Below, in pieces: positions 1 through 21,412 of a DNA stretch of 64,000 bases. The notes beneath the pieces were generated by a model. The model made no database searches, was not told where the DNA came from, and saw nothing but the letters and a program-made list of their open reading frames with translations. Both the position numbers and the translations under genes were made by a program. The DNA comes from Acidimicrobiia bacterium. Lineage in GTDB: Bacteria; Actinomycetota; Acidimicrobiia; Spongiisociales; ZC4RG35. The stretch covers positions 3,913 to 67,912 of the forward strand of contig DATABS010000071.1 in the NCBI GenBank assembly GCA_036259475.1, in the 5' to 3' direction. Each line of letters starts with the position of its first letter. The stretch's first letter is position 1.

Positions 1-397
1 TAACGTCACCCACGATCAGGTGGAAGCCATAGTCGATGGCGCAATTGCCGGCGGCTTTCTGTTGCCAGGCTTCGAACCCCTCCATCAAGCCCTGACCTTT
101 GGTCTGGACCGCGAAGTCAACGACTGTCGTGGTGCCGCCCCAGGCGGCCGCCCGGGTTCCCGTTTCGAAGGTGTCGGAGGCGAATGTGCCTCCGAACGGC
201 AACTCCATGTGGGTGTGGACGTCGAGTCCCCCGGGAATGACGTACTTGCCCGATGCGTCCACCGTGTCATCCGCCGCCCAGTCGTGGCTGCCCGGTGCGG
301 CCAACGCCACCACCTTCTCGTCTTCGATCAGGACGTCGGCGGCCACCTGGTCGGTGGCGGTGACGACCGTTCCGTTTTCGATGATGGTGCGTGCCAT
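1..397 (-). CDS. dihydropyrimidinase / D-hydantoinase (partial; 3' end lies outside the window)
   Basis: Minus-strand translation from the ATG at 397 gives MARTIIENGTVVTATDQVAADVLIEDEKVV...GKYVIPGGLDVHTHMELPFGGTFASDTFETGTRAAAWGGTTTVVDF...AIDYGFH, a typical cyclic-amidohydrolase N-terminus. An AGGAGG RBS sits about 9 nt upstream. It is absent from the ORF track because it runs off the window edge. Confidence 0.6.
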   Translation of the reverse strand, partial: MARTIIENGTVVTATDQVAADVLIEDEKVVALAAPGSHDWAADDTVDASGKYVIPGGLDVHTHMELPFGGTFASDTFETGTRAAAWGGTTTVVDFAVQTKGQGLMEGFEAWQQKAAGNCAIDYGFHLIVGDV

Positions 398-403
398 TGG
401 CTG

Positions 404-1696
404 TCAGCCTCCTGTCGCTTGCTTGAACGCCGAGTCGAGAATTCCGAGGCCCTCGGCAACCTCGTCGGCCGTGACGGTGAGCGGGGGGGCTATGCGGAGC
501 GTGTTGCCGTACAAGCCGCCTTTGCCGATGAGGAGGCGCCCGACCTTGGCCGCCTCCATCACCCTGGCCGCCAGGGCAGGGTCGGGCTCACCGTCATTAG
601 TTCCCAACTCTACGCCCACCATGAGCCCCTTGCCCCGGACGTCGATGATCTCCGAAGTCTCCCCCGCGATCGAGTCGAGGCCCTCCCGCAGCTGTCCGCC
701 CATCTTGAACGCATTGGACTGCAGGTCGTGCTCCAGGAGGTAGTTCAAATTGGCGAGCGCTCCCGCCGTCGAGAGGGGGTTGCCTCCGAAGGTGGAGATG
801 GAGTTGGCCGAGAGGCAGTCCATCACTTCGCCCCTTGCCACGACGCCGGCAATCGCCAGGCCGTTCCCCAGGCCCTTGGCGAAGGTGAGGATGTCGGGAG
901 TCATTCCGTGGGACTGGTAGCCCCAGAAATGCTCGCCGGTCCTGCCCCACCCCGTCTGCACCTCGTCGCTGATGAAGAGGATGTCGTGGCGGTCGAGGAC
1001 CTCCTTCATGGACCCGAAGAAGCCATCGGGAGGGGTGGCGAAGCCTCCGACGCCCTGGATAGGCTCGGCGATCATCGCGGCGACGTCCCCGGCGGTCGCC
1101 ACATCCATGAGATTCTCCAGGTCGGCAACGCAGGCGGCGGTGAACTCGTCGTCGGGCAGATGTCCGAACGGCGAACGCAGCTTGTAACCGGAATGGACGT
1201 ACGTGACGTCGAATGGAGAGAGGGATGTCGCCGACCAAGACCGTTGGCCGGTGATGGCTACGGTCGAATGCGATTTTCCGTGATAGCTGCCCCGCAGGGC
1301 GAGGATCTGATTGGAGCGCCGATACTGGGTGGCGAGCATCAGGGCGGCGTCGTTGGCTTCGGTACCGGAATTGGTGAAGAACACTTTGGCATCGGCGATG
1401 CCCGAAAGCTCGGCGATCTTCTCGGCCAGCTCTATCTGGGGCTCGATCAGGTACAACGTCGAGGTGTGAACCATCTTTTCGGCCTGGGCCCGGACCGCCG
1501 CCACGATCTCGGGCACGTTGTAGCCCGTCATGGTGGTGAGGATCCCTCCGAAGAAGTCGAGGTAGGTGACGCCTTCAGCGTCGGTGACGCGCCGTCCTTC
1601 CCCATCCACCAGTGAGATCGGATCCTCGTAGTACAGAGCCAGCCACGACGGCATCACCTGCCGATGTCGGGAGAGAAGCTCCGAATGAACGTTCAT
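404..1696 (-). CDS. class III (omega/beta-alanine-type) PLP-dependent aminotransferase
   Basis: The 434-aa ORF has the aspartate-aminotransferase-superfamily class III pattern (ISDEVQTGWGRTG, TFAKGLGNGL). The likely ATG start is at 1696 (MNVHSELL...); a GTG at 1708 is the alternative. Confidence 0.85.
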   Translation of the reverse strand: MNVHSELLSRHRQVMPSWLALYYEDPISLVDGEGRRVTDAEGVTYLDFFGGILTTMTGYNVPEIVAAVRAQAEKMVHTSTLYLIEPQIELAEKIAELSGIADAKVFFTNSGTEANDAALMLATQYRRSNQILALRGSYHGKSHSTVAITGQRSWSATSLSPFDVTYVHSGYKLRSPFGHLPDDEFTAACVADLENLMDVATAGDVAAMIAEPIQGVGGFATPPDGFFGSMKEVLDRHDILFISDEVQTGWGRTGEHFWGYQSHGMTPDILTFAKGLGNGLAIAGVVARGEVMDCLSANSISTFGGNPLSTAGALANLNYLLEHDLQSNAFKMGGQLREGLDSIAGETSEIIDVRGKGLMVGVELGTNDGEPDPALAARVMEAAKVGRLLIGKGGLYGNTLRIAPPLTVTADEVAEGLGILDSAFKQATGG

Positions 1697-1701
1697 CTTG
1701 T

Positions 1702-1862
1702 CCCCCACGAAGTGGGGGAAGGTTCCTGCGAGTGTTGCGCTAGCAACGCTCGGAGGTAGGGGGGAAACCTTGGCGAACCCGAGGACGAGGTGAAAGACGG
1801 GTTCGGCTCCCCCCTACCCCACTTCGTGGGGGCCCCTTCCCCCACTCCTACGTCGTGGGGGA
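1702..1862 (-). promoter_or_regulatory. cluster of three hairpins with identical 7-bp stems (CCCCCAC/GTGGGGG) in the amidase-aminotransferase spacer
   Basis: The three elements are cccccacGAAgtggggg (1702-1718), ccccacTTCgtggggg (about 1822-1840) and cccccacTCCTACGTCgtggggg (1838-1860). The first overlaps the GGGGGA Shine-Dalgarno and the start codon of the aminotransferase. Confidence 0.5.
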
Positions 1863-1874
1863 CAAAAATGCCAT

Positions 1875-2717
1875 TCACGGGGCCACCAAGGGCTGGTAGG
1901 CATCCGGGCGGCGATCGCGATAGAACGCCCATGTCTTGCGCACTTCATCGATCATGTCGAGGTCGAGGTCCCGAACCACGAGTTCCTCGTCGGTATCCGA
2001 CGCCGACTCTCCGACGACCTGGCCGCGGGGATCAACGAAGTAGGAGGATCCGTAGAAGTCGTTGTCGCCGTAGGGCTCCTTGCCGATCCGATTGATCGCC
2101 CCGATGAAGTACTCGTTGGCAACCGCCGAAGCCGGCTGTTCGAGGTTCCACAGGTACATCGACAAGCCTCGGCTGGTAGCCGAGGGGTTGAACACGATCT
2201 TCGCTCCGGCCAGGCCGAGCGCTCGCCAGCCTTCAGGGAAGTGGCGGTCGTAGCAGATGTACACGCCGATCCTGCCGACCTTGGTGTCGAAGATGGGGTA
2301 GCCGAGATTGCCGGGCCGGAAGTAGAACTTCTCCCAGAATCCGCTCACGTGGGGAATGTGGGTCTTGCGGTACTTGCCGAGGTACTGGCCGTCGGCATCG
2401 ATGACGGCGGCAGTGTTGTAGTAGAACCCCTCGTCGGCCTTCTCGAACATCGGGACGACCAGCACCATCTCGGTGTCCTTCGCCAGTTGGATCATCCTCT
2501 GCATCGTCGGCCCGTCGGGGATCGGTTCAGCCGAGTCGAAATGCTCGTTCTCCTGCACCTGGCAGAAGTAGGGCGTGTTGAAGATTTCCTGGAAGCACAT
2601 GACCCGGGCCCCGTCGGCGGCGGCCTGCTCGGCGTATTTGATGTGCTTGTCGACCATCGACTCGGAGTCGCCGGTCCATTCGGTCTGGAGAATGGCCGCT
2701 CTCACGATGTTGGACAT
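1875..2717 (-). CDS. carbon-nitrogen hydrolase (beta-ureidopropionase / N-carbamoyl-amino-acid amidohydrolase-like)
   Basis: MSNIVRAAILQTEW...MCFQEIFNTPYFC...VYICYDRHFPEGWR is nitrilase-superfamily signature content. The ATG at 2717 is preceded by a GGAGAGGAG RBS; the longer ORF start at 2825 is unlikely. Confidence 0.8.
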   Translation of the reverse strand: MSNIVRAAILQTEWTGDSESMVDKHIKYAEQAAADGARVMCFQEIFNTPYFCQVQENEHFDSAEPIPDGPTMQRMIQLAKDTEMVLVVPMFEKADEGFYYNTAAVIDADGQYLGKYRKTHIPHVSGFWEKFYFRPGNLGYPIFDTKVGRIGVYICYDRHFPEGWRALGLAGAKIVFNPSATSRGLSMYLWNLEQPASAVANEYFIGAINRIGKEPYGDNDFYGSSYFVDPRGQVVGESASDTDEELVVRDLDLDMIDEVRKTWAFYRDRRPDAYQPLVAP

Positions 2718-2737
2718 GTCGTCTCTCCTCTCCTGTG

Positions 2738-2765
2738 GGCGGGGGACGGAGTTCCGTCCCCCGCC
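2738..2765 (-). other. perfect 12-bp GC-rich stem-loop (GGCGGGGGACGG-agtt-CCGTCCCCCGCC) between the substrate-binding-protein stop and the amidase RBS
   Basis: Read directly from the sequence. No U-tract follows on the mRNA strand, so it is more likely an intra-operon processing/stability or attenuation element than an intrinsic terminator. Confidence 0.5.
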
Positions 2766-2778
2766 TTGGTCACAAGTT

Positions 2779-3951
2779 CTACTCCCCTCCTGGGTTGAGC
2801 TGAACTTCGATCCGCTCCCAGTCATTGCCGTGGACGTCCAGACCCTTCTCTTCGAGGGCGGCGACGGCGGACTCGGCGAGGTCGGACCGGTATACGTCTT
2901 CGCCGATCTCCACGCCTTGGAGATCAGGGATCTGTGTTGTGGCGATCTCCACGGTCTGGTTCCACAGCTCTTCGTTCATGACACCGATTCCGTTGCTGGC
3001 GGGCCAGATGAGCGCATTGATCTCGTTCATCATCCACGTCTGGTGGCTGAGGCCCAGGGTAGAGCCGGCGTCGAGCACAGACTGAACGCAGGAGTCGGGG
3101 TTGTCACGGCAATAGATCCACCCCTCGAAGCTCGCCTCCAGGAACCGCTCCGCAATGTCCTCGTTGTCGGCGATCCACTCGGCGTTGACCCACAGTGCGT
3201 CCTGCAGCATGGCCGTGCCCACCTCATTGAAGTCGATGACGCTGAGGTCCTCCGGTTGGTACAGCTCGCCCGTGTCGGGGTTCTCTGCCTCGAGGACCTG
3301 GGCGTACTCGTTGTAGGTCATGGCCTCGGCCGAGTCGATCTCCCGATTGAGCAATGCCGCCATCGTGAAGTCCTGTGCCACCAGTTCGACGTTCTGAACA
3401 TCGAACTTCTCGATCGCCGCCAGCAGCTCGTATTCGTTGCCGAATCCCCAGTTGCCGACGACCTTGCCTTCCCAGTCCTCGGGAGCTGTGATCCCGGAAT
3501 CGGCCCAGCTCACCATGAGGGTGCCCGATCGCTCGAACATCTGGGCGACGTTGATGATGTCGGCGCCGGCCTGGCGGGATACCAATGCCTTCGGCACCCA
3601 GGCGATTCCGAACTCGGCGCCTCCCGAGGCGAGGACCTGCTGAGGGACGATATCGACGCCGCCCTCGAGGATCTCCACGTTGAGGCACCGGTCGTCGTAG
3701 TAACCCCGGTCGATGGCGGCGTAGTAGCCGGCGAACTGAGCCTGGGCGAACCACTGCAATTGGAGGCGAACGTCGTCGGGTGTCTCACACGCCTCGGCCG
3801 ATCCGGTGTCGGTCGCGGCTGTGTCGGTGACGGTGTCATCGGTCGTCGTGTCTTCCGTGCCGGCTACGTCGGCGTCATCGCCGCAGGCGGCGAGGGCCAA
3901 CGCCAAAATCGCCACCAGGGCGATCAGTCGGCGGTACATGGATGTCATCAT
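2779..3951 (-). CDS. ABC transporter substrate-binding lipoprotein, NMT1/THI5-like (NitT/TauT family)
   Basis: There is a lipobox signal (LALALAACGDD) and an NMT1-like body. The start ATGATG at about 3951 follows an AGGAGGA RBS; the upstream part of the listed ORF is unlikely to be translated. Confidence 0.8.
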   Translation of the reverse strand: MMTSMYRRLIALVAILALALAACGDDADVAGTEDTTTDDTVTDTAATDTGSAEACETPDDVRLQLQWFAQAQFAGYYAAIDRGYYDDRCLNVEILEGGVDIVPQQVLASGGAEFGIAWVPKALVSRQAGADIINVAQMFERSGTLMVSWADSGITAPEDWEGKVVGNWGFGNEYELLAAIEKFDVQNVELVAQDFTMAALLNREIDSAEAMTYNEYAQVLEAENPDTGELYQPEDLSVIDFNEVGTAMLQDALWVNAEWIADNEDIAERFLEASFEGWIYCRDNPDSCVQSVLDAGSTLGLSHQTWMMNEINALIWPASNGIGVMNEELWNQTVEIATTQIPDLQGVEIGEDVYRSDLAESAVAALEEKGLDVHGNDWERIEVQLNPGGE

Positions 3952-3992
3952 TTCCTCCTGGGTTGTCGTTTTCCTCGGTAGTCCGTGTCGCG

Positions 3993-4760
3993 TCACTCCG
4001 CGGCTCGTATCGAGACGTGCCACGGCATGACGAGCCGTTCAGCGGCGAGAACTATCGAATACATGCTTATCCCGAGCACCGCGGAGACGAGGATCGCCGC
4101 CCATGCGTCGGGGAACTGGAAGAGCTGAGCCCGGTTGGTTATGTATTGGCCGAGGACGTCCTGGGGACCGCCGAAGTACTCGGCGATGATCGCCCCGATC
4201 AACGACAGCGGCACTGCCACCTTCATCGCCGAGAAGAAGTACGGCAAGGACGTCGGGATCCTCAGGCGGCGTAGAATTTCGTACGGTGAGGCGGCCATCG
4301 CCCGCATCAGCTCGAGACGGGCAGGGTCCGCCTCGACCAGCCCCCGGGTCGTATTCGCCATGACGGGAAAGAACACCATCAGTGCTACCACGGCCATTTT
4401 CGATACCGGGCTGGTGAGGCCGAAGAGCTGGTTGAAGATCGGGGCGGTCGCCACGATGGGCATTGCGTTCACCGCCGCCGCGAATGGCATGGCCCCGAGC
4501 CGAAGGGTCGTCCAGCGGGCTACCGCGGCCGCGACGAGTATTCCCAGAATCGTGCCCACCACCAGACCCCCCACGGCTTCGATGAGAGTGCGGAATCCGT
4601 AGCTCCAGATGTCGGCGAAGTTTGTGACGAATGAGGTCCAGATCGCCGACGGGGCGGGGAGGATGAACGCCTCGATGTCGAACAGCCGGACGAGGGCCTC
4701 CCACAGCGCCACGCCGCCAACGAACGCGAGCACCGGCGCGGTGAGCCGGCCGGCCCTCAC
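3993..4760 (-). CDS. ABC transporter permease (NitT/TauT family, SsuC/TauC-like)
   Basis: It is a hydrophobic 255-aa protein with the EAA-like motif region (AMAASPYEILRRLRIPTSLPYF) and a 4-nt overlap with the ATPase gene. Confidence 0.85.
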   Translation of the reverse strand: MRAGRLTAPVLAFVGGVALWEALVRLFDIEAFILPAPSAIWTSFVTNFADIWSYGFRTLIEAVGGLVVGTILGILVAAAVARWTTLRLGAMPFAAAVNAMPIVATAPIFNQLFGLTSPVSKMAVVALMVFFPVMANTTRGLVEADPARLELMRAMAASPYEILRRLRIPTSLPYFFSAMKVAVPLSLIGAIIAEYFGGPQDVLGQYITNRAQLFQFPDAWAAILVSAVLGISMYSIVLAAERLVMPWHVSIRAAE

Positions 4761-5533
4761 GAGAGCTTCTCTCCTTGACGGAGCGCCTCACGCACTTCTG
4801 TGAGAAGCTCGAAGAATCTGGGACTCTCTCGTATCTCGAATTGACGGGGTTGAGGCAGGTCGATGTCGATGCGGTGGGTGATGCGCCCGGGTCGCGACGA
4901 CATCACGATCGTCCTGGTGGACAAGAAGACGGCTTCGGGGATGGAATGGGTCACGAACACGACCGTTGTCCCCGTGTCTCTCCAGATCCGCATCAACTCC
5001 TGTTGCATCGACTCACGAGTCATCTCGTCGAGGGCCCCAAACGGCTCATCCATCAGCAGAAGCGGCGGACGCTGTCCAAGGGCACGGGCGATCGCCACCC
5101 GTTGCTGCATGCCGCCTGAGAGCTGCCACGGGTAGTGGTCGACGAAGTCACTCAGACCGACCATCGCCAGCAATTCTTCGGCTCTCGAGCGACGGCCGTG
5201 GGCGTCGACGTCCGCCAGTTCCAAGGGCAACTCGACGTTGCGCAGGACTGTCCGCCACTCCAGAAGGGTGGCGCTCTGGAAGGCGATGCCGTAGTCGCCG
5301 TCGAGGCGCGCCTGGTGAGGGTCCTTGCCGTTGACGATCAGCCGCCCGGCGCTGGGATGGAGCAGTTCGCCTATCAGCCGAAGCAGGGTCGACTTCCCGC
5401 AGCCGGACGGTCCGATGAGAGACACGAACTCGCCCGGTTCGATTTGGAGGTCGATATCGGAGAGGGCCTCGACCGTGCCGGAGCGCCCCGAGAACGTCTT
5501 GCTCAATTTCTGGGCATCGACGATGAAGTCCAT
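4757..5533 (-). CDS. ABC transporter ATP-binding protein (SsuB/TauB-like)
   Basis: Walker A GPSGCGKST, the ABC signature LSGGMQQRVAIARAL and Walker B LLLMDEPFGALD are all present. Confidence 0.92.
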   Translation of the reverse strand: MDFIVDAQKLSKTFSGRSGTVEALSDIDLQIEPGEFVSLIGPSGCGKSTLLRLIGELLHPSAGRLIVNGKDPHQARLDGDYGIAFQSATLLEWRTVLRNVELPLELADVDAHGRRSRAEELLAMVGLSDFVDHYPWQLSGGMQQRVAIARALGQRPPLLLMDEPFGALDEMTRESMQQELMRIWRDTGTTVVFVTHSIPEAVFLSTRTIVMSSRPGRITHRIDIDLPQPRQFEIRESPRFFELLTEVREALRQGEKLS

Positions 5534-6420
5534 CAGAGCTCGGCTCCTCGCACACCCGACGGAAGGGTGAGACGTTCGGCGAGCGATACCACTCCCACGA
5601 AGATCAGGCCGCCGATCGCTGCCATGAATACCGCGGCGTACAGCTTGGACGGGTCGGCGGCGAACACCTGGTTGAACTGGAGCAACGCCCGACCCAGTCC
5701 CTCACCGAAGCCTGCCGGTAGCTCGCCGACTATCGCCCCGACCACTGACGCCGCCGCCGAGATCTTCAATGCAGTGAAGATGTAGGGCAGGGCGGAAGGA
5801 ACCTGGAGCTTCCATAGGCGTTCCCAGGGGGAGGCGGCATAGGAGTGGAACAGTTCGGTGGCGGTGGGCTCGGGCGAACGGAGCCCCCGAACGGTGTTGA
5901 TCGCGACCGGAAAAAAGGTCAGATAGGCGGCGATGATGGATACCGCCATCCAGCCGGGAGCGTCCAGCCGTCGACCCCAGATGACGACCATCGGCGCGAT
6001 GGCGATGATGGGAATCGTCTGGGAGGCCACCACGTAGGGCATGAAGGCTCTTTCGGCCGTCCGGGAGCGGACGAACATCACACCGATGACGAATCCCACC
6101 AGACCTCCGACCAGGAACCCGACAACCGCCTCGCGCAGCGTGTAGAAGGTCGCCACGGCCAGCGCCACGATCAACGGCTCCCCGCCGCGTCGCACCGGTC
6201 CGAACAGGGAAGTGACGACGTCCCAGACATGGGGCATCGAGTTGTTCCCCGGCCGGGGCCGCATTTCAGTCTCGGTGAAAGGCCACACTCCCCCGGTCGC
6301 CCTTCCGAGGAGCTTGTAGCCCTCCCAGAGGACGATCACTGCCACCAGAATGGCGATGAAGGCGAGGACGCGGCGCTGCGGGCGTCGGTCGGCTTGCCGT
6401 GACTCAGTCCCCGCTGTCAT
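5533..6420 (-). CDS. second ABC transporter permease (NitT/TauT family)
   Basis: It has a polytopic membrane profile with an EAA-like region (ELFHSYAASPWERLWKLQVPSALPYIF). The start is probably the ATG at 6420 (MTAGTES...), because the longer ORF to 6663 would overlap priA by about 200 bp. Confidence 0.75.
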   Translation of the reverse strand: MTAGTESRQADRRPQRRVLAFIAILVAVIVLWEGYKLLGRATGGVWPFTETEMRPRPGNNSMPHVWDVVTSLFGPVRRGGEPLIVALAVATFYTLREAVVGFLVGGLVGFVIGVMFVRSRTAERAFMPYVVASQTIPIIAIAPMVVIWGRRLDAPGWMAVSIIAAYLTFFPVAINTVRGLRSPEPTATELFHSYAASPWERLWKLQVPSALPYIFTALKISAAASVVGAIVGELPAGFGEGLGRALLQFNQVFAADPSKLYAAVFMAAIGGLIFVGVVSLAERLTLPSGVRGAEL

Positions 6421-6466
6421 CGGCGGTCGACTATACGCTTTCGGGCGGGGCGTCGCCGCCAAATCA

Positions 6467-8167
6467 TCACAGGTCCAAGGGGTCGACGTCGACACGGACA
6501 GTTGCCCCCTGATCCCTCCAGCGCTGGACCAGAGGCCGCAGCGCCAGCTTGTATCCCCCGAGCGCGGCTCCCTGGACGAGCCAGCGATCGGCACCCTGGG
6601 TCGGTGCTGGTCCCATGATCGACATTCCGTCATCGCCGGTCGCACGCAAATCGCCGTCGACATTGGCAGAGCCGCCTCTCACCTCGATCACCATGATCTC
6701 CGATGCCGGGGGATAACCGAGGGCCCTTCTCTCGGCCATCTCGTGAGTGAGGAACTCCATGGGATCTCCCCGGCGAAGCGCGGTCACCAGGGGCTGATCA
6801 GGAAGAGACGTCTGGAGTATCAGCCGGTTTCCTCGACCCCTTCGCACACGTCCGGCGAGCCGTGCCAGAATGCGGAGGGCCTCTTCGCCCGCCCGAAAAT
6901 GGCTTCCCAGGGCCAGTCCGTCGACGTCGACCGCAATTGCCAGTTCGACCCCCGTAGTGGAGGCGAGATCCCGCTCTGAGCCGACGCCGACCGGAGCCTT
7001 CGAGTTCGTCTCGCCGACTCTGTCGCCGAACAGGCCCTTCAACTCGTGGAGTACCCGGCCGACTCCCGCCCCCAATGGCTCGAACGTGGCACCGCCGCAG
7101 TTGAGGCAGGGGCGGGAGGGTGCGCCGCAGCGGGTGCAGGCTTCGCCCGGTTCCGGCCGGGAACCGCAGTTGGCGCACCGGCGGAGTTCCTTGCATGTGG
7201 CGCACCGGTACGCCGGGGCGTAGCCCCGCCGGTGGCTGAAGACGAAGACTGTGCCGTCCCGCTCGAGCACCCGGGCGATCGCCGTCCGGGCGCGAGCCGA
7301 GACGAGGCCCGACCCGGGCGGCTCCTCGTTGCGGTCGACCACTTCGACCAGGGGCCAGGCTCGGGGACCGGGTCTTACGACCTCCGCTCCCGCTGCCAGT
7401 AATTCGAGGGAGGGCGTCGGACCGACGTACACCTGGGAGAAGCGCTCGAGCCGACCGCGTGTCATCATCAGCCGCCGAACGGCGAGCGTCGGCGTCTGTC
7501 GGTCTTTCATCGCCCGGCGGCTCTCTTCGACGACCACCGCCACCGCCAATCCGGCCACGGGCCAGGTGGCGACGCGAGGAGTGCCGATGACGATGTGCCC
7601 GGGCTGGGAGGCAGCCCTCGACCAGCGTTCGGTGGTCGTGGCGTCATCGACATCGCCAGATATCTCGATGACGTTCTCACCGACCAGACGGCGGGCGTGA
7701 CGGGCCACCATGTCAGCTTCCGAGGCGGTTGCCACCACTATCAGCAGCGACCGGGCGGTCCCGACGATGGGAGTGAGCGCCTCCAGCCACGACACGTCTT
7801 CCCAGGGTGACAGGAGGGCCGTGATGGGCCGTCGCCGCCCCTCCAGCACGGCCTCGGTCAGCTCATCGAGCGGATGCTTGGCAGGTGACGGATTCTGCCC
7901 TGTCGGCGTGTCGCGTCGACTGTGGTGAATTTCAGTCGGTTGGGTGGGGAGATTCGGCGGCGCCGCCCGCTCCAGCATCACCGACACCGGGGCCAGATAG
8001 TGATGGGCGGCCCAGACCAGGGCGTCCCGCAGCTGGGGCCCGAAGACGGGAAGATCGCCCGACACCCCGGTGATCGGCTTCAACCGCTCCGGTGGCCTCT
8101 CTCCCAGTTCGACCACATGTCCGCGTACGCGGCGCCCGCCGAGCGGAACCCGCACGATGCTTCCCAC
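6467..8167 (-). CDS. priA: primosomal protein N' (PriA) homolog with degenerate Walker A/B motifs
   Basis: The PriA-specific Cys-rich zinc-binding region (CATCKELRRCANCGSRPEPGEACTRCGAPSRPCLNCGG) and C-terminal domain are present. The helicase core aligns, but Walker A reads IVGTARSL with no GKT/GKS anywhere, and the DExH position reads VVEES. Confidence 0.8.
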   Translation of the reverse strand: MGSIVRVPLGGRRVRGHVVELGERPPERLKPITGVSGDLPVFGPQLRDALVWAAHHYLAPVSVMLERAAPPNLPTQPTEIHHSRRDTPTGQNPSPAKHPLDELTEAVLEGRRRPITALLSPWEDVSWLEALTPIVGTARSLLIVVATASEADMVARHARRLVGENVIEISGDVDDATTTERWSRAASQPGHIVIGTPRVATWPVAGLAVAVVVEESRRAMKDRQTPTLAVRRLMMTRGRLERFSQVYVGPTPSLELLAAGAEVVRPGPRAWPLVEVVDRNEEPPGSGLVSARARTAIARVLERDGTVFVFSHRRGYAPAYRCATCKELRRCANCGSRPEPGEACTRCGAPSRPCLNCGGATFEPLGAGVGRVLHELKGLFGDRVGETNSKAPVGVGSERDLASTTGVELAIAVDVDGLALGSHFRAGEEALRILARLAGRVRRGRGNRLILQTSLPDQPLVTALRRGDPMEFLTHEMAERRALGYPPASEIMVIEVRGGSANVDGDLRATGDDGMSIMGPAPTQGADRWLVQGAALGGYKLALRPLVQRWRDQGATVRVDVDPLDL

Positions 8168-8262: not shown

Positions 8263-9417
8263 TCAGAGTGCCTCGGCGGCCCGCCGCAGATCGTCAGCGG
8301 CGTCGGTTTGCTCCCAGGGGAAGAGCTCGCGGCCGAAATGCCCGTAGGCAGTGGTCGGCCGGTAGATCGGTCGGCGAAGATCGAGCCGCGAGATGATCGC
8401 ACCCGGCCGAAACTCGAAGTATTCGTGGACGAGGGTGGAGAGCTTCGCCGGGTCGATGACCGACGTGCCGAAGGTCTCCACGAACACCGAAAACGGCTCC
8501 GGCCGACCGATGGCATAGGCGAGCTGTAGCTCGCAACGGGTGGCCAGGCCGGACGCCACGATGTTCTTGGCGGCCCATCGGGCGGCATAGGCCGCCGACC
8601 GGTCGACTTTGGACGGATCCTTGCCCGAGAACGCCCCGCCACCGTGGCGGGCATACCCGCCGTAGGTATCGACGATGATCTTTCGGCCCGTCAAGCCGGT
8701 GTCGGCGTGCGGTCCGCCGATCTCGAACTTGCCCGTCGGATTGAAGAAGTAGTCGGCGTCCTGGGCCAGCATCCCGTCGGGAATGGTGGGAACAACGACC
8801 TCGTTCCACACCTCCTTGGCCATCGTTTCCTGGTCCATGTCAGCTTCGTGGTGCGCCGAGATGAGCACCGAGGTGACTGCCACGGGCCGGTCGCCTTCGT
8901 ATCGGACGGTGACCTGGGTCTTGCCGTCGGGACGCAGGTATCCGAGGAGCTCCTGCTTCCGAACGCTCGCCAGCCGCTCGGCCAGCCGGTGGGCGGTGAG
9001 AATCGGCAGCGGCATGAGCTCGGGGGTCTCGTCGACGGCGAAGCCGAACATGATTCCCTGGTCGCCGGCGCCCAACGAATCTAGATCCCCCCGCTCCACT
9101 CCCTGGTTGATGTCGGGCGATTGAGTGTGGGCCAGGACCACGACATCGATGTCATCTGCCCGGAAATGAGTGTCGTCCACGTAGCCCAGTTCGGCGATCG
9201 TCCGTCGAGCAACAGCCTCGAAGTCGGGCTCGTGCTCCGAGTTGAGCTCCCCGGCGATGACCGCCTTGCCTGTGGTCACGAGCGTTTCGCACGCCACTTT
9301 GCCCAGCGCGTCGTGGGCCAGGACGTCGTCGAGAACGGCGTCACTCACGGCGTCGGCCACCTTGTCGGGATGCCCCTCGGTGACGGACTCAGACGAGAAG
9401 TACCATCGATGGGCCAT
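8263..9417 (-). CDS. metK: S-adenosylmethionine synthetase
   Basis: SESVTEGHPDKVAD, GAGDQG and the GGGAFSGKD motifs are present. Confidence 0.95.
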   Translation of the reverse strand: MAHRWYFSSESVTEGHPDKVADAVSDAVLDDVLAHDALGKVACETLVTTGKAVIAGELNSEHEPDFEAVARRTIAELGYVDDTHFRADDIDVVVLAHTQSPDINQGVERGDLDSLGAGDQGIMFGFAVDETPELMPLPILTAHRLAERLASVRKQELLGYLRPDGKTQVTVRYEGDRPVAVTSVLISAHHEADMDQETMAKEVWNEVVVPTIPDGMLAQDADYFFNPTGKFEIGGPHADTGLTGRKIIVDTYGGYARHGGGAFSGKDPSKVDRSAAYAARWAAKNIVASGLATRCELQLAYAIGRPEPFSVFVETFGTSVIDPAKLSTLVHEYFEFRPGAIISRLDLRRPIYRPTTAYGHFGRELFPWEQTDAADDLRRAAEAL

Positions 9418-9427
9418 ATCGCTCAGC

Positions 9428-10600
9428 TTATCGCCGGAGACGTGAGGTGATGAGATCCAGGAGGCGCCGGGCGACCTCGGCCTTGTCGAGTTGGGGCCAC
9501 TGCTCGGTCGTCAGGTCGTCGTTGACGATGACGACCCGGTTCGTCTGGGTGCCGAAACCCGACCCCTCTTCGGTGACGTCGTTGTAGACCAGCAGATCGA
9601 CTCCCTTGCGCTTGGCCTTGTCGATGGCCCGCTCCAGGCCACCTGTCTCGGCAGCAAAGCCCACGGTGAAGATTCTGTCGTCCCGGGCGACTACCGAAGC
9701 CAGGATGTCGGGCGTCGCCTCCAGCGAAATTGCGGGAGGGCCCTCCGAGCGAGTTAGCTTCTCGGTCGCCGGCCCGGCGGGACGGAAGTCGGCGACGGCG
9801 GCAGCGAAGATGGCGACGTCGGGTTCGATCTTGTCCACGACGTCGAGCATGTCCTGGGCCGACTCGATCCGGTGGACGTTGACGCCGGTTCTCGCCGGTA
9901 GCGAAGATGCCGTCACGAGTTCCACCAGGGCACCCCTCCGAGCCGCTTCGTCGGCGAGGGCATGTCCCATCTTGCCCGACGACCGGTTGCCCAGATATCG
10001 GACTGGATCTATTGCTTCGCGGGTTCCCCCGGCCGTCACCAGAACGGTCAAGCCCTCCATCGACATGTCGAACATCCGGCCGGCGGCCTCCACGATCTCA
10101 TCCGGCTCGGCGACCCGCCCCACGCCGACGTCTCCGCCGGCCAGTTCGCCCGGAAACGGGCCGACGAGCTGGTGACCGTCGGCCAGGAGCCGGTCGATGT
10201 TGCGCCGGGTCGCCGGATGCTCCCACATCTCTGTATGCATGGCCGGGGCGACCAGGACGGGGGCGCGGGTCGCCAGCAACGTAGCGGAGAGGGTCTCATC
10301 AGACAGGCCGTTGGCCAATCGAGCGATGGTGGCGGCGGTGGCCGGTGCCACGATGAGGAGATCGGCCCACCGGGCGAGATCGGTGTGGGGGCTGACGGAA
10401 TCCGCTCCGAAGAGGTCGGTGACAGGATGGTGGCCGGTGATGGCGGCGAATGACTGGGGGCCGACGAACCGGGCGGCAGCTTCGGTCATCACGACCCGGA
10501 CCTCCGCGCCGGCTTCCTGCAGGCGGCGGGCAAGGTAGACGGACTTGTAGGCGGCCACACCGCCGGAGACGCCGAGGACGACCCGGCGGCCGGTGAGCAT
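9428..10600 (-). CDS. coaBC: bifunctional phosphopantothenoylcysteine decarboxylase / phosphopantothenate-cysteine ligase
   Basis: The N-terminal flavoprotein domain (VLGVSGGVAAYK) is followed by a DFP/CoaB domain; the protein is 390 aa. Confidence 0.9.
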   Translation of the reverse strand: MLTGRRVVLGVSGGVAAYKSVYLARRLQEAGAEVRVVMTEAAARFVGPQSFAAITGHHPVTDLFGADSVSPHTDLARWADLLIVAPATAATIARLANGLSDETLSATLLATRAPVLVAPAMHTEMWEHPATRRNIDRLLADGHQLVGPFPGELAGGDVGVGRVAEPDEIVEAAGRMFDMSMEGLTVLVTAGGTREAIDPVRYLGNRSSGKMGHALADEAARRGALVELVTASSLPARTGVNVHRIESAQDMLDVVDKIEPDVAIFAAAVADFRPAGPATEKLTRSEGPPAISLEATPDILASVVARDDRIFTVGFAAETGGLERAIDKAKRKGVDLLVYNDVTEEGSGFGTQTNRVVIVNDDLTTEQWPQLDKAEVARRLLDLITSRLRR

Positions 10601-10821
10601 CAGCCCTCTTGATCCTCCACCGCCACCTTGCCTTCGGCGATCTCTTCCATGGCGATGGTGAGTGGCTTGCGGGACAGAGAATGGACCTGGGGCGGCACGT
10701 ACTCGCCGATCCCGCCGCCGAGCTGGCTGAAGTAGCCGTTGATCTGGCGGGCCCGTCGAGCCGAGACTACGACGGCGGCGAATCGGTTTCCGATGGTGTC
10801 TATGACGTTTTCGATCTTCAT
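10600..10821 (-). CDS. rpoZ: DNA-directed RNA polymerase subunit omega
   Basis: This is a 73-aa protein (MKIENVIDTIGNRFAAVVVSARRARQI...) at the conserved gmk-rpoZ-coaBC position. Confidence 0.85.
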   Translation of the reverse strand: MKIENVIDTIGNRFAAVVVSARRARQINGYFSQLGGGIGEYVPPQVHSLSRKPLTIAMEEIAEGKVAVEDQEG

Positions 10822-10914
10822 TGGTGAGGCACAGGGTAGTCGGTCAGCCCGGGATCACCTCACCAGCCTGCTTCCCCTAGCAAGGGGAGAGGTGTTCGAG
10901 GCGGTCCAGGGAAG

Positions 10915-11508
10915 TTAGCGGGTCAGGATGTCGACGACCTCGTCCACCGCCCGGTCGACGTCGTCATTGAGGACGATGTGGTCGAACAAGACAGGAGCGG
11001 CGGCCATCTCCTCTTCGGCGATGAGCAGCTTGGCGTCGATGTCTGCTGGGCTGGTGTCTGCCCTGGCTTCCAGACGCCGCCGCAGATCGTCCATCGACGG
11101 CGGAGCCACGAAGATCATGAGTGCCTCCGGCATGGCGGCCCGGATCTGTCTCGCTCCCTGCACCTCGATCTCCAACAGGACATCCCGGCCCTCTGCCCGG
11201 GCTGCTTCGACGGCGTCGCGAGGCGTGCCGTAGTAATTGCCATTGAACATGGCCCATTCGAGTAGCTCGCCGGACTCGATGAGATGCTCGAACTGCTCCT
11301 TGTCGACGAACCGGTAGTGAAAGCCCTGGACCTCGGCCGGCCGCTGTGAGCGGGTCGTCGCCGAAACGGAAAAGTGGACAGGGACCCGGTGTCGCACCTC
11401 CGCCACGATGGTCGACTTCCCCACCCCGCCTGGACCGGCGATGACGATCAGCCGACCCGGCGGTCGTTTGTCCTCGGCGTCAGGAGAACTCAGAGAGGAG
11501 CCCGGCAC
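10915..11508 (-). CDS. gmk: guanylate kinase
   Basis: P-loop GPGGVGKST, plus the SATTR..R and YYGT motifs. Confidence 0.92.
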   Translation of the reverse strand: MPGSSLSSPDAEDKRPPGRLIVIAGPGGVGKSTIVAEVRHRVPVHFSVSATTRSQRPAEVQGFHYRFVDKEQFEHLIESGELLEWAMFNGNYYGTPRDAVEAARAEGRDVLLEIEVQGARQIRAAMPEALMIFVAPPSMDDLRRRLEARADTSPADIDAKLLIAEEEMAAAPVLFDHIVLNDDVDRAVDEVVDILTR

Positions 11509-11791
11509 GTTGGCGTTCGCCCAGGCCGCGCAGACGGCGGTTGTCGGCGATGTCGTACTTCTCCATCAGACGCTTGGCCTTCACCTTTCCGGTTCCCGGC
11601 ATGGCAGCAAGCAACGACTCGACCTTGATTCCCCCGATCAGCTCTTCCTCAGCGGCTCTTTGCAGCAGCTCGGAGAACGAGATGGTGCCCGTCTTGAGCA
11701 GCTCCTTCATCTCGGCCCTGACTCGGCGGGCCTCAGCCGCCTTGGCGAGGGCGGCGGCGCGTTGCTCTTCGGACAGTTCGGGTGGCTTCAT
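11480..11791 (-). CDS. mihF: integration host factor, actinobacterial type (mIHF)
   Basis: It is strongly similar to mycobacterial mIHF (EEQRAAALAKAAEARR...KVKAKRLMEKYDI...RRLRGLG). The probable start is MKPPEL, with a GGGAGGA RBS. Confidence 0.88.
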   Translation of the reverse strand: MKPPELSEEQRAAALAKAAEARRVRAEMKELLKTGTISFSELLQRAAEEELIGGIKVESLLAAMPGTGKVKAKRLMEKYDIADNRRLRGLGERQRAGLLSEFS

Positions 11792-11893
11792 GGATCCTCC
11801 CACGAGCGGACCCGGTCGACTGTATCAGGCTCGATTACCGTCATGCCATGCCGAGTCGGTGCCGTGGACCCATTCACTCTGGGTGAGTTCTGA

Positions 11894-12619
11894 GTGGGAA
11901 GCTACTTCATATCCGGAGCCAGTTCCGGTCTCGGGGCGGAGATGTCCCGCCAGCTCGCCAACCGGGGGGACGCAGTCGCGCTCGCCGCCCGCCGCACGGA
12001 GCGTCTCGAGGCGTTGGCGGCGGAACTGGGCGTAGGTGTGACAGTGCACCCGGTCGACGTAACCGAACCGGAGGCCGTCGAACGGGCCATCCGAGACGCC
12101 GACCGCACCCACGGGGGCCTCGATGTGGTTGTCGTCAACGCCGGCCGGGGCGGCGGAGGACGGATTGGCACCGGCCGGTCGGCCGAGAACCGCGCCGTGA
12201 TCGAGACGAATCTGACCGGCGCTCTCGGCCAGATCGAGGCGGCGATGGAAATCTTCCGGTCCCGCGGCCGCGGTCATCTCGTCCTCGTGTCCTCGCTCGC
12301 CTCGGTGCGGGGACTGCCCGGCTCGGCCGCCACCTACTCGGCCACCAAGGCAGCGTTGGCATCGATCGGCCAGTCGTTGCGCGCCGAGCTCGCAGGCAGC
12401 GACATCGCGGTCACAACACTGCGGCCGGGCTATATCCGCACCGAGCTCAACCGCCGGGCCGCAGTCCCTTACATGACGGGATTGGAGGACGGCGTGGCGG
12501 CCATGATCGCGGCGATGGACGCTCGGGCGGGCGACGTCGTCGTTCCCGCCTGGCCATGGCGGGCGCTCGGCTGGATCGTGCGGGTGGTCCCTTCCAGGCT
12601 CATCCGTCGCTTCATGTGA
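11894..12619 (+). CDS. short-chain dehydrogenase/reductase (SDR) family oxidoreductase
   Basis: It has TGxxxGxG (ISGASSGLG), NAG (VVNAG) and YxxxK (YSATKAAL). It is the only plus-strand gene in the 6-22 kb block. Confidence 0.85.
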   Translation: MGSYFISGASSGLGAEMSRQLANRGDAVALAARRTERLEALAAELGVGVTVHPVDVTEPEAVERAIRDADRTHGGLDVVVVNAGRGGGGRIGTGRSAENRAVIETNLTGALGQIEAAMEIFRSRGRGHLVLVSSLASVRGLPGSAATYSATKAALASIGQSLRAELAGSDIAVTTLRPGYIRTELNRRAAVPYMTGLEDGVAAMIAAMDARAGDVVVPAWPWRALGWIVRVVPSRLIRRFM

Positions 12620-13318
12620 TCAGCCGATGCCGTCGGCAATGGCTGTGGCCGCTTGGGCCGGGTCGTCCGACCGAGTGATCGAGCGCCCTATGACCAGCCA
12701 ATCGGCTCCACGGCGGATGGCCTCGGAGGGAGTCGACACCCGGGCCTGGTCGTCAGTGGCTGCTCCGGTCGGCCGGATCCCCGGCGTCACCTTGAGGAGG
12801 TCAGGAGCTACCTGCGCTACGTCCCCCAGTTCCTTCACCGAGCACACGACGCCTTCGACTCCGGTGGCGCGAGCTAGTTTCGCGATTCGGGCGACCTGAC
12901 GTCCGGGGCTGCCCGTGATCCCGGTGGCGGCGAGGTCCGCCCCGGTCAGGCTGGTGAGGACGGTGATGGCGAGGATTCCGGCCGGGTGGCCCGCAGCACC
13001 CTGTTCCAGACCTTCCGCCGCCGCCTGCAACATCGCCTGGCCACCAGCTCCGTGGGCGGTCACCCAGCGGGCGCCGAGGGCACCGAGATTGCGGGCGGAG
13101 CGGTGCACGGTGTTGGGTATGTCGTGCAGTTTGGCGTCGACGAACACCGGGAGGCCGAGCTCCCTCACCGCCGCCACAGTCGCCGGTCCCGGTCCCGTGA
13201 GCAGCTCCAGGCCCACCTTGAAACCCCCGACGTGGGGTCGCAGCTGCCGAGCCATCTCGATGGCGGGCCGGGCCTCGGCGAAGTCCAGGGCGACGATGAT
13301 GGGGTTCCGTTCAGCCAC
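12620..13318 (-). CDS. pyrF: orotidine 5'-phosphate decarboxylase
   Basis: PIIVALDF and FKVGLELL are present, and the gene is in pyr operon context. Confidence 0.9.
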   Translation of the reverse strand: MAERNPIIVALDFAEARPAIEMARQLRPHVGGFKVGLELLTGPGPATVAAVRELGLPVFVDAKLHDIPNTVHRSARNLGALGARWVTAHGAGGQAMLQAAAEGLEQGAAGHPAGILAITVLTSLTGADLAATGITGSPGRQVARIAKLARATGVEGVVCSVKELGDVAQVAPDLLKVTPGIRPTGAATDDQARVSTPSEAIRRGADWLVIGRSITRSDDPAQAATAIADGIG

Positions 13319-13339
13319 CAGTGCGCTCCCACGTGGTTT

Positions 13340-14247
13340 TCAAAGGGTGGCTGCTCCGGTCAGGTCGGACACGGCCTCGATGGCCCGGCGGTCGCACCAG
13401 TCGGTCAGCTCATCGAGGATCCGCCGCGCCGCCCGCGGCTCGGCGAAATGGATGGTGCCGAGCGCAACCGCTGCCGCACCCGCCATCAGGTACTCGACCA
13501 CATCCGTTCCGCGAGAGACTCCCCCGCAGCCGAGGATCGGCAGCCCCGGAAGCGCCAGGGCCACTTCCATCACGCAGCGCAGGGAAATGGGCTTGAGCGG
13601 CGGGCCCGAGTAACCGCCGACGCCGCCCGAAAGGAGGGGGAGCCCGGTGTCGACGTCGATCCCCGCCCCTGAAATCGTGTTGGTGAGCGTCACCCAATCC
13701 GCGCCGCCCTCCCGGCACGCCGCCGCCACCGCCACGATGTCGGTGGAATTGGGTGACAGCTTGGCGCCGACTGGCAGGTCGGTGGCGTCCTTGACGGCTT
13801 CCATCACCTTGCGCGACGGCTCCGGTTCGAGGGCGAACATCCGTCCGCTCTCCAGGTTGGGACAGGACAGGTTGACCTCGACCGCCGCCACCCCTGCCCG
13901 ACCCAGTCCTCCGGCGACGCGGGCAAACTCTTCCGGACTGGTGCCGACGGCCGAGCCCCACACCTGGCAACCGACCGTTTGGAGCCTGGGAGCGGTCTCG
14001 TCCACCCAGCGCTCGATCCCCGGGTTCTGGATGCCGATGCCGTTCAGCATTCCTAGGCCGGCGGGAGCGAGACGCGGCGGGGGCCGACCCTCCCAGGGCT
14101 CGCCAGACACGGATTTTGCCGTCATTGCCCCGTAGGCGCCGACGTCGGCCACGCGGGCGAACTCCCACACGGAACCGACCGTTCCGGATGCTGCCACGAG
14201 CGGCGTGGAGAGCCGGAGTGCGCCCAGCCGAACCGAGGTGTTGGCCG

Positions 14248-14251
<4 letters not shown>
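13340..14251 (-). CDS. pyrD: dihydroorotate dehydrogenase (class 1 catalytic subunit)
   Basis: It has a TIM-barrel DHOD pattern (LKNPV-like [23 protein letters not shown]). The start is probably the ATG at 14251 (MTANTSV...), overlapping the carB stop. Confidence 0.85.
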
Positions 14252-17488
<3,237 letters not shown>

Positions 17489-17499
<11 letters not shown>

Positions 17500-18651
17500 C
17501 GCCCATTCCCATCAGATCTGTGAACTCGTCGAAGAGGTGCACCGAGTCGTGAGGCCCCGGAGCCGCTTCCGGGTGGTACTGGACCGAGTAGGCGGGGACG
17601 TCTAGGCAGCGGAGGCCTTCCAGGGTGCCGTCGTTGAGGTTCTGGTGGGTCGGGATGACCCGTCCGAACCGGCTCTCCACCGAACCGGGCAAGAGCTCTG
17701 GTGCCACGAGCCCGTGTCGTCCGGGGGCCCGGTCCCCCGACAGGCTCCACAGGTCCACCGCGAAGCCGTGGTTGTGGGCGGTGATTTCGATCCGTCCGTC
17801 GGCTAAACGCCTGACGGGATGGTTGCCGCCATGATGACCGAAGGGAAGCTTGAACGTGGCGGCACCCAGGGCCCGACCCAGTACCTGGTGGCCGAGGCAG
17901 ATGCCGAACACGGGCACCTTGCCGAGCAGACCCTCCAGGGTCGAGGTGGCGGCGTGCAACGGCTCGGGATCGCCGGGACCGTTGGAGACGAAGACGCCGT
18001 CGGGGCGCATGGCGGACACATCGCCGGCGGTGAGGCGGGGGGGGACCACCGTGACCTCGAGCCCGCGAAGGGTCAGGTTCGTGATGATGTCCGCCTTCAT
18101 CCCCAGGTCGATGGCCACCACCGAGCCCCTCCTGATCCCTCGGGCGGCGACGGTGTAGGGCTCGACAGTGGCCACGCCTGTCGCCAGATCGAGGCCGATC
18201 ATCGAGGGGGCGGCGGCCGCCGCCGCCGTCAGTTCTTGTTCGTGGACGCCGGCCCCCACGGCTACCGGCATCGCCCCCCGATCCCGCAGATGGCGGGTGA
18301 GTCGGCGGGTATCGACGTCGGCCACGGCCACCATCGAATTCTCACGCAAGTAGGCGGCCAGCGACCCTTCAGCTCTCCAGTTCGAGTGGCGCCGTGAGAG
18401 GGAACGCACCACGAAGCCGGCGGCGGCCGGTTGGGGCCGTTGTGCGTCGGCGGAGGTGACGCCATAGTTGCCCTGGTGCGGGGCCGTCATGACCACCACC
18501 TGCCCGGCGTAGGAGGGATCGGTCAAGATCTCCTGGTATCCCGTCATGGACGTATTGAAGATCGCTTCGCCGGTGGCGATGCCTTCCGCCCCCACCGAGC
18601 GGCCCCGAAACACTTCTCCGTCGGAGGTGACGAGCAAACCCTCGGTCACTG
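17489..18651 (-). CDS. carA: carbamoyl-phosphate synthase small subunit
   Basis: It has a CPSase small-subunit N-domain plus a class I glutamine amidotransferase domain (GICLGHQ). The probable GTG start at 18649 overlaps the pyrC stop. Confidence 0.9.

Positions 18652-19898: not shown

Positions 19899-19902
<4 letters not shown>
18646..19902 (-). CDS. pyrC: dihydroorotase
   Basis: The amidohydrolase has a DLHVHLREPG metal site, and the gene is in pyr operon context. Confidence 0.92.

Positions 19903-21412
<1,510 letters not shown>

Follow-up and report, generated by a model that had tools for sequence, protein, structure and literature searches.

At its left end, the 64,000-nucleotide stretch of Acidimicrobiia DNA analyzed here (the window; from contig DATABS010000071.1) carries most of a gene cluster for an ATP-binding cassette (ABC) importer and a set of catabolic enzymes, lying directly 3' of priA. 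We find that this locus probably serves to import pyrimidine bases and to degrade them reductively as sources of nitrogen and carbon, i.e., by a form of the extended Pyd pathway, for which we infer the substrates. A classical dihydropyrimidine dehydrogenase is absent from the locus. At the far end of the cluster, just beyond the window, lies instead a gene for a protein of the TIGR03842 family of LLM class F420-dependent oxidoreductases (hereafter the LLM protein). Going by gene context alone, we lean, with slightly better than even confidence, toward its being an F420H2-dependent uracil/thymine reductase that displaces the non-orthologous PydA (PreT/PreA).

Gene content and pathway assignment

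Positions 1–8167 of the window hold eight open reading frames (ORFs), all on the minus strand and with G+C fractions at third codon positions of 0.78–0.85: priA and seven cluster genes (Table 1). An earlier note on this DNA, made from the sequence alone, had described these seven as a catabolic operon 3' of priA, and each of them was recovered essentially where it had been placed. The truncated dihydropyrimidinase that it had recognized at the window edge was likewise borne out, with TIGR02033 being the best NCBIfam model for the fragment that runs from position 397 past position 1. The cluster does not stop at that edge; two further genes continue on the source contig. This can be traced through consecutive NCBI accessions from a single 68,647-bp contig of an Acidimicrobiia metagenome-assembled genome, which include metK (HEX2154391), the ATPase (..388), the binding protein (..386), the CN-hydrolase (..385), the aminotransferase (..384) and the LLM protein (..381). 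The last of these (HEX2154381.1; P0126) is named by NCBI as a TIGR03842 family LLM class F420-dependent oxidoreductase. Its gene is not encoded within the 64-kb window and, as it belongs to the same contig, must therefore lie in the 4.6 kb of the contig outside the window, three genes past the aminotransferase in accession order.

The full gene order is seen in two close relatives (loci L002 and L004), whose binding proteins are 80–83% identical to that of the window: permease, ATPase, permease, substrate-binding protein, CN-hydrolase, aminotransferase, dihydropyrimidinase, a CoA-acylating (methyl)malonate-semialdehyde dehydrogenase (MMSDH) and the LLM protein, followed by def, fmt and rpe. 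The last two enzymes of the relatives are well above the family thresholds (MMSDH: TIGR01722, 724 bits, cut-off 448.5; LLM protein of L002: TIGR03842, 551.5 bits, cut-off 295.45). Nine genes thus make up the cluster, of which the window holds the upstream seven-ninths. A dihydropyrimidine dehydrogenase had been proposed as something to look for just past position 1; what follows there is instead the rest of the dihydropyrimidinase, by synteny the MMSDH, and the LLM protein.

The dihydropyrimidinase fragment matches TIGR02033 with E = 8e-44, as against 1e-17 for the allantoinase model, and the dihydroorotase match is also far weaker. It retains the HxH metal motif and is 86% identical to its L002 orthologue, which scores 578.6 bits with TIGR02033 (cut-off 393.25). 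The CN-hydrolase is the ambiguous member of the cluster. Its best NCBIfam model is AguB (N-carbamoylputrescine amidase, TIGR03381) at 260.7 bits, which is below the cut-off of 410.25, and among solved structures it matches carbamoylputrescine amidohydrolase with 194–198 bits, β-ureidopropionase with 177–184 bits and D-carbamoylases with 84–97 bits. The catalytic triad is intact, with Glu44, Lys118 and Cys155 aligning with its residues. The flanking motifs, ICYDRHFPE and FNPSAT, resemble those of β-ureidopropionase (ICYGRHHP, FNPSAT) and are unlike those of the amidase (ICWDQWFPE, FYPTAI). Orthologues with 79–94% identity adjoin the dihydropyrimidinase gene in relatives, and this constant adjacency points to a PydC-like specificity for what would be a short version of the enzyme, devoid of the N-terminal extension of animal β-ureidopropionases. 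The aminotransferase reaches the cut-off of no NCBIfam model; its nearest solved structures include GabT and PuuE, and it is 60–91% identical to counterparts in the same cluster of relatives and of Streptomyces. The presence of an MMSDH in the relatives fits β-alanine and β-aminoisobutyrate as intermediates. More generally, a semialdehyde dehydrogenase for C3 and C4 products fits the Pyd pathway and not the polyamine, allantoin or α-amino-acid hydantoin routes.

These results separate the two options in the earlier note's assignment to the late steps of either reductive pyrimidine or hydantoin degradation: model cut-offs, motifs and the MMSDH uphold the former, whereas the scores of the D-carbamoylases speak against the latter. 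Nor do the proteins fall into the polyamine or allantoin families that the note had named as grounds for abandoning it, as AguB remains under its cut-off, TIGR02033 beats the allantoinase model and the motifs are of the β-ureidopropionase type. An allantoin-based reading was ruled out by model scores, motifs and conserved partners.

In the proposed pathway, a NitT/TauT-type importer with a lipid-anchored NMT1-fold binding protein would take up the substrate, most likely uracil and/or thymine. Reduction of the ring at C5=C6 would follow, with the LLM protein as the proposed reductase using F420H2, after which the dihydropyrimidinase would open the reduced ring. The CN-hydrolase would free NH3 and CO2 from N-carbamoyl-β-alanine or N-carbamoyl-β-aminoisobutyrate, the class III aminotransferase would remove the second nitrogen, and the MMSDH, from its gene just outside the window, would yield acetyl-CoA or propionyl-CoA. 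The extended bacterial Pyd pathway has been described as comprising PydA, PydB, PydC, PydD and either PydE or MSDH (PMC7332683). The present locus is like such clusters in grouping a dihydropyrimidinase, a carbamoyl-amidohydrolase and a class III aminotransferase, with an MMSDH in the relatives; it differs from them in having neither an NAD(P)H-dependent PydA/PreTA nor a ferredoxin-dependent PydAc, with the TIGR03842 protein in their stead.

The importer was identified by PF09084, two copies of PF00528 and PF00005, in agreement with the NitT/TauT-type transporter with an NMT1 binding protein that had been called from the sequence. The best NCBIfam matches of the ATPase are TauB, SaoA and NtrCD, all under the equivalog cut-off, and those of permease 1 are weak and likewise under the cut-off (SaoP, SsuC and NtrB). 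Permease 1 is 74–77% identical to its counterparts in L002 and L004, and close homologues of the importer are labelled as NitT/TauT family in JGI. The nearest solved structures for the binding protein are 4nmy and ThiY (3ix1). The latter belongs to the ThiXYZ importer (TC 3.A.1.17), which shares the NMT1/THI5 fold and the NitT/TauT-type permeases and ATPase, and whose ThiY binds a pyrimidine, formylaminopyrimidine; however, the similarity is remote (50 bits) and the context here is catabolic rather than one of thiamine salvage.

Such an importer had been regarded as an unusual stand-in for the NCS1 permease, a view that does not hold, as classical Pyd clusters commonly include importers homologous to this one. 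Compared with 72,556 plasmid and chromid records, the binding protein has best matches that are 31–40% identical to it, and four of the five that we inspected sit in Pyd clusters, all four with a one-ATPase/two-permease architecture: Clostridium butyricum (Zn hydrolase, ABC, hydA, preA), a Klebsiella quasipneumoniae plasmid (ABC, TetR, preT-like, preA, hydA, Zn hydrolase), Deinococcus psychrotolerans (preA, hydA, ABC, Zn hydrolase, cytidine deaminase) and Sinorhizobium meliloti (rutR, Zn hydrolase, hydA, ABC). The fifth, from Azospirillum, has no Pyd genes nearby. These four clusters thus share with the window the importer architecture, the related NMT1 binding protein and an adjacent hydA; the first three differ in combining PreA or PreT/PreA with an M20 Zn-dependent carbamoylase, where the present locus has the LLM protein and a CN-hydrolase. 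A dihydropyrimidinase gene flanked by ABC transporter genes was already described in 2012 in Aminobacter and Mesorhizobium (PMC3546935). In the classical clusters with homologous importers, the first enzyme is a dehydrogenase for uracil or thymine; import of the unreduced bases by this transporter family is therefore the most economical inference.

To assess conservation, we scanned one genome per species with an alignment of binding-protein homologues, which gave 80 loci from Acidimicrobiia (including Ilumatobacteraceae and sponge symbionts), Nanopelagicales and Chloroflexota; these were annotated with a tblastn panel, and counts were restricted to the 40 loci flanked on both sides by 9 kb or more. 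At least one of four enzyme genes was found in 37 of the 40, the individual frequencies being 35 for MMSDH-like proteins, 29 for the CN-hydrolase, 28 for the dihydropyrimidinase, 25 for the aminotransferase and 24 for the LLM protein. In close relatives, the enzyme genes follow the binding-protein gene on its 3' side, and in Ilumatobacteraceae they precede the first permease gene. Such permutation of the gene order between lineages is expected from functional coupling rather than from an inherited neighborhood.

A candidate F420-dependent ring reductase

The 20 larger ORFs of the window, scanned with Pfam, include no PreT/PreA-like or other dihydropyrimidine dehydrogenase, and tblastn searches with E. 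coli PreT/PreA (E ≤ 1e-15) gave no match in 85 related loci. The same queries recovered PreA/PreT in the Clostridium, Klebsiella and Deinococcus loci, which served as the positive control. The earlier note had held that the lack of a ring-reduction gene near the cluster would tell against a pyrimidine pathway; no classical one was found, which could be counted so, and the vacant place is occupied by a conserved candidate, the LLM protein.

Several contexts link the LLM protein to this pathway. First, its gene often abuts that of the dihydropyrimidinase in the surveyed loci. Two Streptomyces replicons have it 17 nt past the end of the dihydropyrimidinase gene, in clusters with a CN-hydrolase and an aminotransferase that are 73% and 60% identical to those of the window and without the ABC importer. 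Second, the LLM gene is the last of a cofG-cofH-cofD-cofC-cofE-Fno operon in Leisingera, Cohaesibacter, Marinobacterium and uncultured marine Alphaproteobacteria (Table 1). Genes for a dihydropyrimidinase, M20 carbamoylase and class III aminotransferase surround these marine operons, as do those for a transporter (NMT1 ABC system or NCS1 permease) and for a TetR regulator with a TetR_C_3 domain, the type of domain that RutR, the uracil sensor, also has; no PreA/PreT is nearby. Third, in Paracoccus alcaliphilus a cofGHDCE-Fno-LLM operon is directly followed by an NMT1-type ABC system, and altogether the LLM gene terminates cof-Fno operons in five proteobacterial lineages. Fourth, the LLM protein and PreA were never found together in any locus inspected.

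The nearest solved structures of the LLM protein are F420-dependent methylenetetrahydromethanopterin reductases (Mer), the closest match extending over the full length with 129 bits; both are TIM-barrel proteins of the LLM class. Nevertheless, TIGR03842 members fall far below the cut-offs of the Mer models (TIGR03555, 112 against 348.7 bits; NF002619, 137 against 276 bits) and, unlike Mer, occur in non-methanogens and in pyrimidine-catabolic contexts. The cof-Fno operons and the Mer-like nearest structures point, if indirectly, to F420 as the probable cofactor. With the NADPH:F420 reductase (Fno) encoded directly upstream, the LLM protein would be expected to consume F420H2 and hence to act as a reductase.

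By extension, TIGR03842 would constitute a third, non-homologous solution to the first step of the pathway, widespread in Acidimicrobiia, Streptomyces and Chloroflexota, with the proteobacterial cof operon and Fno kept to serve it, a generalization we likewise consider only a little more probable than its opposite. A comparable displacement has been raised for purines: from gene neighborhoods, a 2025 paper proposed that a luciferase-family F420 reductase stands in for the PydA-like YgfK/UacX in uric-acid clusters of Chloroflexota (PMC12507026). There, too, a PF00296 F420-type enzyme would replace a PydA-like flavin/Fe-S ring reductase beside amidohydrolases; that proposal, itself bioinformatic, differs in its purine-derived substrate and SsnA-centered cluster, and it draws no link to TIGR03842 or pyrimidines. 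The idea of displacement has thus already been raised for the purine pathway, and we found no such proposal for pyrimidines; full-text searches gave nothing that connects F420 with uracil or dihydrouracil, or with the breakdown of pyrimidines. Together with dpyS, amaB2, mmsA, gabT6 and an ABC transporter, Haloferax volcanii induces a luciferase-family oxidoreductase (PMC6801745). A putative F420/FMN oxidoreductase, SSGG-03002/NpsU, reduces the uracil C5=C6 bond in mureidomycin/napsamycin biosynthesis, a reaction not reconstituted in vitro (PMC10714638). We considered NpsU as a homologous precedent and rejected it, as its relatives are of the PPOX class and not LLM proteins; it is at most a chemical precedent.

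Taken by itself, the in-window portion of the cluster is unremarkable, a Pyd-type set of genes with an ABC importer; what it adds is a better annotation of very abundant Acidimicrobiia genes that currently bear generic labels such as 'ABC transporter substrate-binding protein', 'nitrilase-related hydrolase' and 'aspartate aminotransferase family protein'. Considered in full, the locus offers a testable hypothesis on the function of TIGR03842: across several phyla, the canonical ring reductase is absent from the clusters and TIGR03842 is present, in Proteobacteria together with a whole F420 pathway and an NADPH:F420 reductase. Why Proteobacteria and Chloroflexi make F420 was listed as an open question in a 2021 review of the cofactor (PMC8498797). 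If true, the proposal would provide a physiological reason for proteobacterial F420 and a role for it outside Actinobacteria and methanogens. It would also assign a function to a large family, define an F420-dependent branch of pyrimidine catabolism and correct predictions that score organisms lacking PydA as unable to degrade pyrimidines.

Opposing evidence and alternative substrates

Several points weigh against the foregoing interpretation. The PreT/PreA search covered the loci and not the rest of the genomes, so that a classical dehydrogenase might be encoded elsewhere. Searches with cofG/H/D/C/E and npdG of Paracoccus (tblastn) recovered no F420 biosynthesis genes in the window or the related loci, and the production of F420 by the organism of the window is assumed. 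We found no paper mentioning TIGR03842 or CPS_4043, and the only experimental precedent that we found for uracil-ring reduction of a flavin/deazaflavin type, NpsU, belongs to a different fold class. The identity of gene ..382, between the dihydropyrimidinase and LLM genes on the window's contig, as the MMSDH is deduced from synteny and from the 4.6 kb that the contig has beyond the window. For the CN-hydrolase, N-carbamoylputrescine amidohydrolase slightly outscores β-ureidopropionase (198 against 184 bits). Further, in eight full-flank loci of the Acidimicrobiia type (L015, L017, L021, L022, L025, L028, L029 and L046), which have the importer, the CN-hydrolase, the dihydropyrimidinase and, about 2 kb away, the MMSDH, neither the LLM protein nor a class III aminotransferase is encoded within 10 kb. 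The importer may thus deliver a ring that has been reduced beforehand, or the gene for the reductase may lie at another place; in this subgroup, the absent genes may be located elsewhere in the genomes or the pathway may be shorter. The genes that intersperse and flank those of the Pyd enzymes in L021 are unrelated (a CAAX protease, a Zn peptidase, a decarboxylase, a hydrolase and an MFS protein), with no alternative reductase among them.

This subgroup, which retains the importer and the ring-opening and decarbamoylating enzymes without an LLM protein, suits the strongest of the alternatives, namely that the locus breaks down an imported reduced or cyclic ureide (dihydrouracil, dihydrothymine or a related cyclic amide). 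No reductase would then be needed, and the LLM protein would have another role, for instance as an F420-dependent malonate-semialdehyde reductase like PydE/RutE. The Streptomyces and Leisingera clusters add to its appeal and count against a ring reductase, as they have the LLM protein and no MMSDH nearby, so that the former could handle the semialdehyde. We nevertheless consider this explanation unlikely. Homologous importers adjoin PreA/PreT, the substrate of which is the unreduced base, and in Paracoccus the LLM gene neighbors the importer while genes for the downstream Pyd enzymes are absent from the vicinity. Moreover, the Acidimicrobiia clusters hold both an MMSDH and the LLM protein, which would make a second semialdehyde-consuming enzyme redundant, and the LLM protein and PreA exclude each other in the inspected loci.

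A hydantoin-utilization (Hyu) system, in which a D-hydantoinase and a CN-hydrolase-type D-carbamoylase would convert imported 5-substituted hydantoins to amino acids, is very improbable. While TIGR02033 spans both D-hydantoinases and dihydropyrimidinases, and D-carbamoylases are CN-hydrolase family proteins that do appear among the structural matches, their scores are about half those of β-ureidopropionase and carbamoylputrescine amidase. The conserved ω-aminotransferase and CoA-acylating MMSDH fit β- and not α-amino acids, and no hydantoin racemase was seen. Least probable of all, to the point of being scarcely credible, is a polyamine/agmatine route with an N-carbamoylputrescine amidase, a putrescine/GABA aminotransferase and a polyamine-type importer: against the top-ranking AguB model and amidohydrolase structure for the CN-hydrolase and the resemblance of the aminotransferase to GabT and PuuE stand the large shortfall from the AguB cut-off, the β-ureidopropionase type of the active-site motifs, the lack of an agmatine deiminase nearby, a binding protein of the NMT1 and not the PotD/PotF type, and conserved partners that are a dihydropyrimidinase and an MMSDH and not succinate-semialdehyde or aminobutyraldehyde dehydrogenases.

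Spacers, transcription signals and gene neighborhood

Table 1. Positions of the cluster genes, their signals and the comparison operons (window coordinates unless a locus is named)
Feature	Position	Strand	Remarks
Dihydropyrimidinase (PydB), N-terminus, 132 codons	1..397	-	Cut by window edge; TIGR02033; DVHTHM metal motif
Class III (omega) aminotransferase, putative PydD-like β-alanine/β-aminoisobutyrate aminotransferase, 430 aa, HEX2154384.1	404..1696	-	PF00202, E 1e-92
Structured palindromic spacer, 178 nt	1697..1874	-	CN-hydrolase/aminotransferase gap; dG -106 kcal/mol, z -8.45
CN-hydrolase, putative PydC-like N-carbamoyl-β-alanine amidohydrolase, 280 aa, HEX2154385.1	1875..2717	-	PF00795, E 5e-66
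G+C hairpin, 12 bp	2738..2765	-	In 61-nt spacer after binding-protein gene; dG -34.7 kcal/mol, z -5.4
NMT1/THI5-type lipoprotein substrate-binding protein, 389 aa, HEX2154386.1	2779..3948	-	PF09084, E 8e-35; lipobox LALAAC
ABC permease 2, 255 aa	3993..4760	-	BPD_transp_1 PF00528, E 1.4e-20
ABC ATPase, 258 aa, HEX2154388.1	4757..5533	-	ABC_tran PF00005, E 1.7e-32
ABC permease 1, 295 aa	5533..6420	-	BPD_transp_1 PF00528, E 4e-21
-10-like box TATAGT	6430..6435	-	9 nt upstream of permease-1 ATG
priA	6467..8167	-	Upstream neighbor, outside catabolic cluster; PriA_3primeBD domain
cofGHDCE-Fno-LLM operons	L089 6510-13002; L097 4411-11005; L098 4473-11005; L099 4539-11005; L088 6587-13002		Marine Alpha-/Gammaproteobacteria

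Permease 1 begins 46 nt past the end of priA. Within the cluster, the junctions comprise a 1-nt overlap, a 4-nt overlap (ATPase/permease 2) and a 6-nt gap, along with three wider spacers of 44, 61 and 178 nt. The seven genes are at most a putative operon: the shared direction and the mostly tight junctions would fit one, and a stable hairpin after the binding-protein gene and the structured 178-nt spacer intervene. The hairpin has no U-tract. In L002 and L004, the corresponding position is taken by a 12-bp hairpin that differs in sequence (z -4.6 and -3.7), and the element may act as an mRNA stabilizer, an attenuator or a partial terminator between the transporter and enzyme genes.

The 178-nt spacer folds as one long imperfect palindrome, in which CCCCCAC-N-GTGGGG occurs three times and nowhere else in the 64 kb (0.13 copies expected by chance). 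The CN-hydrolase/aminotransferase spacers of the relatives are shorter, share only CGAAG.GGGGTAGGGGG and, in L002 and L004, are not significantly structured. An Rfam search of the spacers gave nothing at E ≤ 1 save one chance-level match.

The TATAGT box upstream of permease 1 is found at the same distance from the ATG in L002 and L004, with TAnnnT-like boxes in more distant loci. This suggests that the cluster has its own promoter giving a near-leaderless transcript, such that co-transcription with priA would not be required. A scan for consensus promoters and terminators found no full sigma-70 site and one terminator-like site at chance level. The adjacency to priA to which attention had been drawn is real in the window; it is specific to the window's lineage, other genes intervening in the relatives, and the transporter apparently has its own -10 box. 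In L002, the closest long relative, a divergent MocR-type regulator (GntR with an aminotransferase fold) and a deazaflavin-dependent nitroreductase-family gene (TIGR00026) lie between priA and the permease (5634-7434), and in L004 two unrelated genes separate them. MocR-like genes recur beside the cluster in L037, L065 and L084, and the window has no regulator at that position.

The priA product is short, at 566 aa (558–620 aa in relatives). Only its 3' DNA-binding domain passes Pfam, and the PriA NCBIfam models score 94–140 bits against cut-offs of 763–980. The housekeeping character ascribed to the surroundings was confirmed, as the Pfam scans of the 20 larger ORFs gave solely housekeeping genes, including pyrR-pyrB-pyrC-carAB-pyrF, gmk, aro genes, ruvB, hisS and citrate synthase. 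Upstream of priA, a minus-strand run at 8263-21382 holds pyrR-pyrB-pyrC-carA-carB, pyrF, gmk, an ORF of coaBC size (9428-10600, assigned by size) and metK, an order in keeping with the usual actinobacterial arrangement. The catabolic cluster lies at the end of this run, which places genes for pyrimidine biosynthesis and degradation within about 15 kb of each other.

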